A DNA stretch of 58,911 bases from Candidatus Xenobia bacterium (GTDB lineage: Bacteria > Vulcanimicrobiota > Xenobia > Xenobiales > QWHO01). Positions 23,801 to 24,589 of the stretch are shown one piece after another. Position 1 is the first letter of the stretch. The number at the start of each line of letters is the position of its first letter. The stretch spans positions 1 to 58,911 of the forward strand of contig BTUM01000005.1 of NCBI GenBank assembly GCA_045863235.1. Reading direction: 5' to 3'. The notes beneath the pieces are model-generated. The model worked only from the letters and a program-made list of their open reading frames with translations, was not told where the DNA came from and searched no databases. Made by a program: the position numbers and the translations under genes.

Positions 23801-24010
23801 TCAGTAGAAGAGCGGTCGGATACCCCTCTTCTTGGCTCGCACTCCATGGCCCACGTTGGTGATCCTGTCGCTAAGCCCGGGATTACTCTTCAATACGAGA
23901 CTCCAAAAATTGTCTGCCTGGATATCCGCCAGGACTTCCTTGAAAACACTGTCCGCATGTTTGCGGTCGATGGGTTTGCCCTTGCTTGAGGACCGTCCAG
24001 ACTTAGCCAT
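23801..24010 (-). CDS. Small hypothetical protein (69 aa) in the islet, start overlapped by the stop of the upstream ORF (ATGGCTAA)
   Basis: A GAGG-type RBS lies 5 nt upstream. The gene is translationally coupled to the preceding ART-like or alternative-frame ORF. Confidence 0.4.
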   Translation of the reverse strand: MAKSGRSSSKGKPIDRKHADSVFKEVLADIQADNFWSLVLKSNPGLSDRITNVGHGVRAKKRGIRPLFY

Positions 24011-24151
24011 GGTAACCTCGTTTCCAGGACCTGATACTCAGGTCCTCTGGTGGTATGAGCTCGACACTTTGAATCACGCTCGGATCGCGAACCGCCACTT
24101 GGATATGGCCGAGCGTGTAGATAGGGGATCCTTCGAATAGCGGACGACCTG

Positions 24152-24589
24152 TCATACAGGGTGCTCGCACGGACCTGAGCTCGAGGCCCCGTTCCTTATA
24201 TTGCTGCACGATAAAGTTGAAGAAAGCGCAGTCCAGAAGATTCTCTCCGGTCTCAGGATTGTTCCGGAGACCTCTCGGTGCAGCTCGTTCCAGAAAGTCA
24301 GAACTCGCCTCGTCCATCTTCTTGCTCCAGTAAGAGTCACAGAGTCCAAACAGTCCCTCAGTGACACCTCGGCTGCAACAACTGCAATCTTGCCGCCTAA
24401 GCCTTCTACCTGGCGACGGCTCTCTGCCCAGACGGCGGCCCAGTTGAGGGCTTCCTGCCAGAAGTAGATGCCTGTCCCCAACCACTCAATGGCTTTCACG
24501 CTGGGCTTAAAGCCGTCACGCACGATCTGGTGCGCCAAAGCTAAGGAAGTCCCATGATAACACCGGACGATGTTCTCCTGGCTGGACAT
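24152..24589 (-). CDS. ADP-ribosyltransferase-fold (H-Y-E class; Tpt1/KptA- or PARP-like catalytic lobe) small protein, toxin candidate
   Basis: The N-terminus reads 'CYHGTSLALAHQIVRDGFKPS … GTGIYFW … AESRRQVEGLGGKIAVVAAEV'. This matches the H-G-T, aromatic G-I-Y-F and downstream Glu arrangement of KptA and PARP NAD-binding lobes, but the KptA N-terminal domain is absent. Confidence 0.45.
   Translation of the reverse strand: MSSQENIVRCYHGTSLALAHQIVRDGFKPSVKAIEWLGTGIYFWQEALNWAAVWAESRRQVEGLGGKIAVVAAEVSLRDCLDSVTLTGARRWTRRVLTFWNELHREVSGTILRPERIFWTALSSTLSCSNIRNGASSSGPCEHPV

Follow-up and report, generated by a model that had tools for sequence, protein, structure and literature searches.

A probable toxin-partner module, recently inactivated and without a chaperone gene, built on a CmdT-like ADP-ribosyltransferase in a Candidatus Xenobia genome

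In a stretch of 58,911 nucleotides (nt) from a Candidatus Xenobia bacterium (GenBank assembly GCA_045863235.1, contig BTUM01000005.1, positions 1 to 58,911; hereafter, the window), we have analysed a gene that encodes an ADP-ribosyltransferase (ART), together with the small gene that follows it on the reverse strand. Our main conclusion is that the two genes are probably a recently inactivated toxin-partner module, similar to the CmdT-CmdA pair of the CmdTAC system but devoid of a chaperone, that was acquired horizontally as a two-gene cassette; we assign to this reading a probability of roughly 0.68. The reading is drawn from the homology of the ART with CmdT, from the mobility and the foreign GC content of the cassette, from the near-universal presence of a partner that is swapped, reordered, duplicated or fused across the ART family, and from the loss of ART genes beside partner genes that are still open. 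Mobility, partner swapping and the loss of a toxin with retention of its partner are hallmarks of toxin-antitoxin (TA) and defence modules, and ART toxins with cognate neutralisers are already known from DarTG, ParST/MbcTA and CmdTAC.

Three open reading frames (ORFs) of 145, 160 and 69 amino acids (aa) are found at exactly the positions where an earlier, sequence-only reading of the same DNA had placed them (Table 1, as ORF 1, ORF 2 and the partner gene), and both motifs to which it had drawn attention, CYHGTS and GTGIYFW, are present in the translation; the two longer ORFs overlap in different frames, as it had described, by 334 nt and not by 333 nt. It is virtually beyond doubt, as judged from the sequences, that these two ORFs are one frameshifted gene, because an intact orthologue and intact homologues exist, a single C is missing, and the two halves of the hidden Markov model (HMM) of the family fall in two frames. 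The search with the N-terminal part of ORF 1 joined to the C-terminal part of ORF 2 has retrieved the intact protein P0001 (195 aa, 87% identity, 100% query coverage) and 117 further homologues of 155-292 aa, mostly 176-195 aa, which cover both halves. Among the 921 ORF segments of the window, the family HMM matches ORF 1 with profile positions 2-98 (E 2.9e-31), ORF 2 with positions 72-178 (E 2.7e-27) and no further segment; as the halves lie in different frames, ORF 1 ends in a nonsense tail. The compact ART of 145 aa that had been proposed is therefore not what the locus encodes: only 82 of its residues are native, the conserved C-terminal motifs (D120, R142, S155 and H162-x-Q164) are encoded after the break, and the domain needs all 195 residues.

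Table 1. Features of the locus, in window coordinates.
Feature	Position	Strand	Description
ART gene	24003..24589	-	587 nt; 195 aa with one C restored; CmdT-like ADP-ribosyltransferase, most likely a recent pseudogene
ORF 1	24152..24589	-	82 native N-terminal residues (H12, Y42, W54, D82), then a 63-residue out-of-frame tail
ORF 2	24003..24485	-	native frame only 3' of 24343, the C-terminal 113 codons; D120, R142, S155, H162, Q164
Frameshift site	24343..24344	-	GGAC-TC in the window, GGACCTC in relatives; one C missing beside 24344
Partner gene	23801..24010	-	intact, 69 aa, basic; ATG within the final ART codons (ATGGCTAA overlap)
Two-gene cassette	23798..24630	-	sole stretch common to the 59-kb window and the 20.6-kb orthologue locus (blastn)

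Of the two explanations that the sequence-only reading had offered for the overlap, the frameshifted longer gene is borne out by the intact orthologue and by the single missing C, which lies inside the stretch 24300-24360 that it had singled out, and the genuinely overlapping genes are refuted by homologues that use one frame. Overlapping genes, or a programmed frameshift as the normal mode of expression, have next to no probability: both frames are open over the 334 nt and look protein-like, but each looks so only where it is native, a single frame serves the orthologues and more than 100 homologues, and no slippery heptamer occurs at GGACTCT. An error of sequencing or assembly, which would mean that the organism carries an intact and functional ART gene of 195 aa, deserves more attention and is still quite unlikely: the source is a metagenome-assembled genome (MAG), the change from CC to C is a plausible slip of basecalling, and, in the DNA alignment with the orthologous loci L001 and L002, the missing C is the lone length difference within the ART gene, which has no second defect. 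Against an error, no long homopolymer lies at the site, other loci of the family also have broken ART genes, and two Logan contigs, assembled from separate runs (DRR491769 and DRR491768), encode the exact sequence of the small protein and match the window with 100% identity over 3159 and 1340 nt, respectively, with the deletion included. Because the same deletion is present in these two other public assemblies, it is probably real. The ratio of nonsynonymous to synonymous substitution rates (dN/dS), calculated against the orthologue, amounts to 0.08 for the part ahead of the break and to 0.16 for the part behind it (dS approximately 0.45); the latter value is also what an error would leave behind, and, if the lesion is real, it means that the lesion is recent and that the gene was under purifying selection until very recently. 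The ART gene of the window is thus most likely a young pseudogene, and, in annotation, the two overlapping ORFs belong together as one pseudogene. Both Logan contigs stop at exactly position 23724 of the window, 77 nt beyond the stop of the small gene; this shared end may reflect strain heterogeneity or a feature at the edge of the cassette that breaks assemblies.

We assign the ART fold of the clade of CmdT, diphtheria toxin (DT) and PARP to the repaired protein with high confidence. Its model, with a predicted local distance difference test score (pLDDT) of 90.9, has the split β-sheet that forms the NAD-binding core of ARTs and is closest to PARP, DT and exotoxin A (ExoA); strand β1 begins at residue 7, and no N-terminal trafficking, Rhs, PAAR or signal region precedes it. 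The ART fold that the sequence-only reading had recognised is in this way upheld, in a PARP-like form, and so is its remark that the N-terminal RNA-binding lobe of KptA is absent; the kinship that it had seen with Tpt1 is peripheral in the model, and that with DarT is undetected. Pfam PARP is matched by all 48 family members that were compared (best 5.4e-7) and Exotox-A_cataly by 39 of them, mostly below the gathering score and in the N-terminal lobe only; the family profile matches ExoA in the Protein Data Bank (PDB) at E 7.6e-4, with H12 aligned to His440, Y42 to Tyr470 and W54 to Tyr481. Whether obtained with Pfam, with the PDB profile or with hhalign, the matches with ExoA and PARP all end at approximately residue 86. 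None of the 48 members matches Pfam DUF3990 (PF13151), DarT or RES at E <= 1, and this includes DUF3990 for two Chamaesiphon members that nevertheless carry that label in UniRef. In NCBIfam, the family members give only sub-threshold matches to Tpt1 and the window protein gives no match, while a library of viral structures yields only distant phage proteins of the ART-PolyVal-like type, with template modelling (TM) scores of 0.3-0.5.

The alignment of 264 family sequences locates the conserved residues of the putative active site: H12 is conserved in 255 of 257 sequences, Y42 in 264 of 264, D120 in 263 of 263, and both H162 and Q164 in 250 of 255, with W54 found in 252 sequences, R142 in 257 and S155 in 245. 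The Glu residues of AESRRQVE and AAEV, from which an H-Y-E triad had been proposed, lie in variable, non-conserved columns, and the triad is most likely H12-Y42-Q164, its third position being deduced from sequence and predicted structure. We favour Q164 because it opens the predicted penultimate strand (residues 161-167) and is aligned with the conserved Gln of CmdT (‘TRQQ.CV’), in an alignment of low local confidence; the start of the penultimate strand is also the place of Glu988 in PARP1 and of Glu148 in DT. Forced global alignments to ExoA, PARP1 and DT sequences give zero confidence on the third catalytic residue. An H-Y-Q triad agrees with the motif ‘HY-[E,D,Q]’ that has been stated for CmdT. 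The alternative candidate for the third residue, E147, is conserved in 242 of 260 sequences and is a T in the window.

CmdT is, to our knowledge, the first enzyme that has been shown to ADP-ribosylate mRNA, and we know of it only within three-gene, chaperone-dependent systems. The anti-phage system CmdTAC, also designated PD-T4-9, is composed of CmdT, which adds ADP-ribose to mRNA at GA sites and blocks translation, of the antitoxin CmdA, which has two helices and a disordered tail and also aids the folding of CmdT, and of CmdC, a SecB-like chaperone (PMC9519451, PMC11618068). For our comparison, real CmdTAC loci were recovered from E. coli genomes by means of a published primer for Y41A mutagenesis, and four divergent CmdTAC systems, which reside on a Vibrio phage and on plasmids of Acinetobacter and Psychrobacter, were added, all of them with the toxin, antitoxin and SecB genes in this order.

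By sequence comparison, the closest characterised relative of the window enzyme is CmdT, of which it is a remote homologue. The HMM of five CmdT sequences has ORF 1 as its sole significant match in the window (E 1.6e-6 among 921 ORF segments; next E 0.81) and matches 83 ORF segments in the family loci and the window combined; the PADLOC model PD-T4-9_A matches 48 of the 48 members (best 5.4e-9; window protein 1.1e-5), with a match that spans positions 30-82 of 187 only, and the hhalign comparison of the family with the five CmdT sequences reaches 95.0% (E 3.6e-8, 141 columns). The motifs correspond one by one: the His in strand 1 belongs to FH.C in CmdT and to YHGT in the family, the Tyr in strand 2 to QGYYFW (Y41) and to TGIYFW (Y42), and the stacking aromatic residue to A..W in both; the motif that follows the aromatic residue is LLDL in CmdT and CLDL in the family, and the third position lies in R-x-Q-h-x-V in CmdT and in H162-x-Q164-h-A-V in the family.

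The likeness to CmdTAC extends from the stand-alone ART of approximately 190 aa, with the same order of motifs, to the layout of the locus, where the toxin gene comes first and a small gene stands close behind, and to the partner, for which three short helices with disordered ends are predicted, next to the N-terminal helix pair and the disordered tail of CmdA. The cassette also differs from CmdTAC. The third gene of CmdTAC encodes a SecB-type chaperone, and none has been found at the window or at the family loci: the HMM of CmdC, built from five real systems, has no match at E <= 1 in the 10,701 ORF segments of the window and 95 loci, and no SecB Pfam domain occurs among the called neighbour genes. 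The partner has no detectable homology to CmdA, whose HMM has no match in the same 10,701 segments; PADLOC PD-T4-9_B gives no match, and hhalign of CmdA against the partners of the family gives 0.1-18%. The hosts of the family (Vulcanimicrobiota, Cyanobacteria, Chloroflexota, Myxococcota, Planctomycetota and Verrucomicrobiota) are different, and the toxin copy of the window is frameshifted.

The small gene is, on comparative sequence evidence, a real gene, since it has a conserved orthologue and a dN/dS of 0.18; the orthologue in loci L001-L003 has 71 aa, shows the same overlapping layout, and differs from the window copy by an in-frame indel of 6 nt. The stop of the ART gene and the start of the small ORF share 8 nt (ATGGCTAA), and the protein is basic, with an isoelectric point (pI) of 10.5 and 14 Lys and Arg against 6 Asp and Glu residues, so that the coupled, basic ORF of the sequence-only reading is confirmed. 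We have modelled the repaired ART followed by the 69-aa protein as one artificial chain with AlphaFold2, with unpaired rows and with alignment depth for the ART part only. In this model, which has a predicted TM score (pTM) of 0.83, residues 16-56 of the partner form three helices at a pLDDT of 92-96, the values stay below 50 at the junction and in the basic tail at the C-terminus, and the ART loop 147-160 turns into a regular hairpin; the model, judged by pLDDT and pTM alone, weakly fits a partner that would dock on the enzyme near this loop.

The ART gene and the small gene appear to have been acquired horizontally and to have moved as one unit, because the cassette that they form is the only DNA that the window shares with locus L001, and its surroundings in the two genomes are unrelated. 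The comparison of the 20.6-kb L001 with the 59-kb window by blastn returns one high-scoring segment pair of 840 nt (L001 9960-10799, window 24630-23798, 86.4%), which begins 41 nt before the start of the ART gene and ends 3 nt after the stop of the small gene. The GC content of this cassette of approximately 835 bp is 0.549, against 0.661 for the window. At third codon positions, the GC content (GC3) of the cassette is 0.59-0.70; two flanking host genes, the GH63-like hydrolase gene 25805..28519(-) and the 483-aa gene 22129..23580(+), reach 0.87-0.88, and the transglutaminase-like gene next to the cassette has 0.67.

The family to which the window enzyme belongs is large: a full HMMER search gives 4,837 clusters (50% identity) at E <= 1e-3, with 2,392 of them at E <= 1e-10, and the 150 top-ranking representatives of the 4,837 clusters have a stand-alone architecture, nearly all with 133-280 aa and one with 325 aa. 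It spreads over at least nine bacterial phyla and is common in those named above as hosts; a locus scan with one genome per species has collected 194 loci, with Armatimonadota and the host phyla named above among the taxa. Neither Pfam nor NCBIfam has an entry for the family, its best match in PADLOC is the weak one to the CmdT model, and in the literature we have come across no paper that describes the family; those on DUF3990 are unrelated.

A partner adjoins the ART gene in nearly all of the loci examined. In loci of Cyanobacteria and Chloroflexota, the gene that follows the ART gene begins with a domain of approximately 35 residues, K..E.L..HFA.VT.EEF..NL...CPELFEE, whose HMM has 42 matches among 9,780 ORF segments, all 42 on the strand of the ART gene: 36 of them start within a few tens of nt of the ART stop, five are second copies that follow after another 235-440 nt, and one is part of a fused ORF of locus L010 (314-1102, a Thermoflexaceae MAG), where the ART and the partner domain of cyanobacterial type are joined in one continuous ORF, as a natural fusion. 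Tandem duplicates of the partner are present in four cyanobacterial loci (L014, L022, L029 and L040). The tails that follow the domain are varied: HTH_3 (L004 4539-5372), a Uma2 nuclease (L023 4534-5391), acidic linkers, or guanylate kinase (Gmk), to which the domain is N-terminal, directly after the ART gene, in L007 and L009 (4582-5361) and in L012, from Tepidiformaceae and Dehalococcoidia MAGs. The modules of L007/L009 and L012 are situated inside an aroA/prephenate-dehydrogenase operon, and the Gmk fusion could be either a neutralising module that has been captured by an essential gene or a link to nucleotide metabolism. In loci of Myxococcota, Planctomycetota and Verrucomicrobiota, the partner is of a second type, KMTPEEF..AGI..DG.L..Y; 16-17 loci have it downstream of the ART gene, and in others it precedes the ART gene or is encoded on the other strand. 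The link between the two types is weak (hhalign 71.5%, E 3.6e-5). Next to them, the window partner is a positional analogue whose homology is only suggested: it can be aligned with the cyanobacterial motif without gaps, in MAFFT and by eye, and we have not retained it as a homologue, as the statistics are unsupportive.

Broken ART genes recur in the family. Locus L036 (3977-4516) has two stops, loci L060 (3083-4558) and L064 (3617-4531) have one stop each, in a similar place, and locus L092 (2-626) has a frameshift; an open candidate partner ORF adjoins each of these genes, and it is matched by a partner-family model in L036, L060 and L064, while the ORF of L092 has no detectable relatives.

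Several other systems share features with the cassette. DarTG also consists of an ART toxin gene followed by a neutraliser gene, with roles in TA biology and in phage defence, but the Pfam DarT model gives no match and the 69-aa partner has no macrodomain. The toxins of the RES-Xre systems (MbcTA, ParST and NatRT), TA proteins of the ART fold that consume NAD or ADP-ribosylate, carry an R-E-S motif in place of H-Y-Q; the family gives no Pfam RES match and is similar to them at the level of the fold only. The RES-Xre antitoxin is encoded upstream, is larger and contains Xre-HTH and DUF2384 domains, whereas the window partner is encoded downstream. Tpt1/KptA differs through its N-terminal RNA-binding lobe, and only 74-82 residues superpose. 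In comparison with DT, ExoA and PARP, the sequence alignment is limited to the N-terminal NAD lobe, the third position is a Gln, as deduced above, instead of a Glu, a two-helix insert (residues 87-133) is specific to the window family, and translocation, receptor and regulatory domains are absent. With type II TA systems in general, the cassette has in common an adjacent, co-oriented and coupled pair of genes that moves as a unit.

The earlier reading had proposed a TA-like, anti-phage or polymorphic-toxin module; a TA-like or defence-type module is the part of this proposal that we find best supported, and the architecture of a polymorphic toxin is not what we have found. A secreted effector with a cognate immunity protein, for use in interbacterial competition, would fit the order of a toxin gene followed by a small gene, and ART domains, including those of the DUF3990 type, are known as tips of Rhs and type VI secretion toxins with small immunity genes behind them (PMC4524185); it is nevertheless very unlikely, given a stand-alone protein of the size range reported above that starts directly with its fold, loci without secretion genes among those examined, and a Pfam DUF3990 model that remains unmatched. 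A non-toxic enzyme of the ART type is unlikely to a lesser degree; it could act in the manner of an RNA 2'-phosphotransferase, or modify a metabolite or a housekeeping protein at the expense of NAD, with the small protein as its regulator or substrate adaptor. The operon context in Chloroflexota and the Gmk fusion speak for such an enzyme, but the protein resembles CmdT, ExoA and PARP much more strongly than it resembles Tpt1, the cassette is mobile and of foreign GC content, its partners are swapped and duplicated, its gene order varies, and the ART gene has repeatedly been inactivated beside an open partner ORF.

Several observations weigh against the interpretation as a toxin-partner module. 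The homology with CmdT is remote: the hhalign comparison has 14% identity and is confident in the N-terminal lobe only. The window partner is a candidate whose role rests on its position, its conservation and the artificial fusion model; HMM comparison with other partners gives E values of 96 and 11 (rank 12 of 921), BLASTP against the other partners returns nothing, jackhmmer returns orthologues only, and hhalign against the other partner types gives at best 23% (E 8.9e-4). The housekeeping operon and the Gmk fusion of Chloroflexota could point to a regulatory role, and the neighbours of the cassette in the window (transglutaminase-like, GH63-like hydrolase and DUF218 genes) are ordinary and form no defence island. 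Position 147, moreover, is occupied by T in the window and in P0001 and by S in P0002, and the subclade of the window deviates at R50 and F145 as well (R50 to W, F145 to C), so that its chemistry may differ from that of the family; as purifying selection persists despite these changes, we regard the subclade as one with a modified loop and not as a dead enzyme. With these points taken into account, a function as a toxin with its neutralising partner remains, by analogy with the known systems, fairly probable.

On the toxin-partner interpretation, the intact copies of the family would spend NAD+ in order to ADP-ribosylate a macromolecule and block growth; by analogy with CmdT, single-stranded RNA or mRNA would be the most likely substrate, although RNA as the target is in itself doubtful. 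The partner would bind the enzyme directly through its short helix bundle and keep it harmless, perhaps by occlusion of the active site, and it may assist the folding of the enzyme, as CmdA does for CmdT. If the partner were lost or degraded, the toxin would be freed, either in a type II TA-like addiction or in a defence by abortive infection. In the Xenobia genome, the toxin gene would have been killed recently by the deletion of 1 nt, with the partner gene still open; the loss of a toxin beside an open partner is the usual route by which such modules decay.

The cassette is located between the transglutaminase-like gene and an unannotated gene of 483 aa (22129..23580(+)), with a GH63-like hydrolase gene nearby. 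The surroundings of the orthologous cassette in L001 (Vulcanimicrobiota MAG JBDHVW010000022; 1-9652 and 17950-18620) contain BrxC/BrxD-like ATPases, SNF2 helicases and a PIN/PhdYeFM pair, and are rich in defence and TA genes, unlike those in the window. Scans for promoters, terminators, tRNA genes and flanking repeats around the cassette have given nothing above background. The orphan ORF 24643..24936(+), with a 68-aa form that starts from 24730, diverges from the ART gene and starts 13 nt outside the cassette; it is 100% identical to the hypothetical protein AMXMBFR33_10000 of a Candidatus Xenobia MAG, 5.8 billion proteins contain no homologue besides this one, and the 68-aa form gives a sub-threshold match to an Xre-like antitoxin HTH (E 0.014, 16.2 bits against a cut-off of 25.8). 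On the other side, the 115-aa ORF 23454..23801(-) begins within a TGATG overlap with the stop of the small gene and continues in antisense direction into the 483-aa gene, which is convergent; with no Pfam match and no counterpart in the orthologous locus, the ORF is probably spurious. We have considered both the divergent ORF (97 or 68 aa) and the 115-aa ORF as members of the cassette and have rejected them, as they have no homologues or domains of their own beyond those given here and lie outside the conserved cassette. Further from the cassette, the 483-aa gene and 16680..20459(+) (1259 aa) are uncharacterised, as members of a phylum that has been little studied, and have no Pfam domain except for a faint HEAT match, and very long ORFs overlap on opposite strands across the window (e.g. 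5529..10484(+) and 6102..10529(-)), an artefact that is expected in DNA of 66% GC.

For the Xenobia genome itself, the result is modest: a toxin gene that would have been killed recently and a partner gene that survives. Its wider meaning lies with the family, which we regard as related to CmdT but distinct from it; the family is very large, has no name, and has another partner solution and no chaperone. As a more tentative proposal, the family would be a chaperone-independent sister of CmdT, made up of RNA-targeting ART toxins whose neutraliser is a helix module of approximately 35 residues that has repeatedly been replaced, duplicated or fused to the toxin, to guanylate kinase, to the Uma2 nuclease or to HTH domains. 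If this proposal is true, the family would be a new and widespread superfamily of TA and defence systems, and the subclade of the window (E147 to T, R50 to W, F145 to C) would be a variant whose chemistry or target has changed. If the mechanism is the same as that of CmdT, the ADP-ribosylation of nucleic acids as a means of growth arrest or defence would reach beyond the proteobacterial and phage systems recovered here, and the family would offer a simple system for the study of how a module of approximately 35 residues silences an ART.

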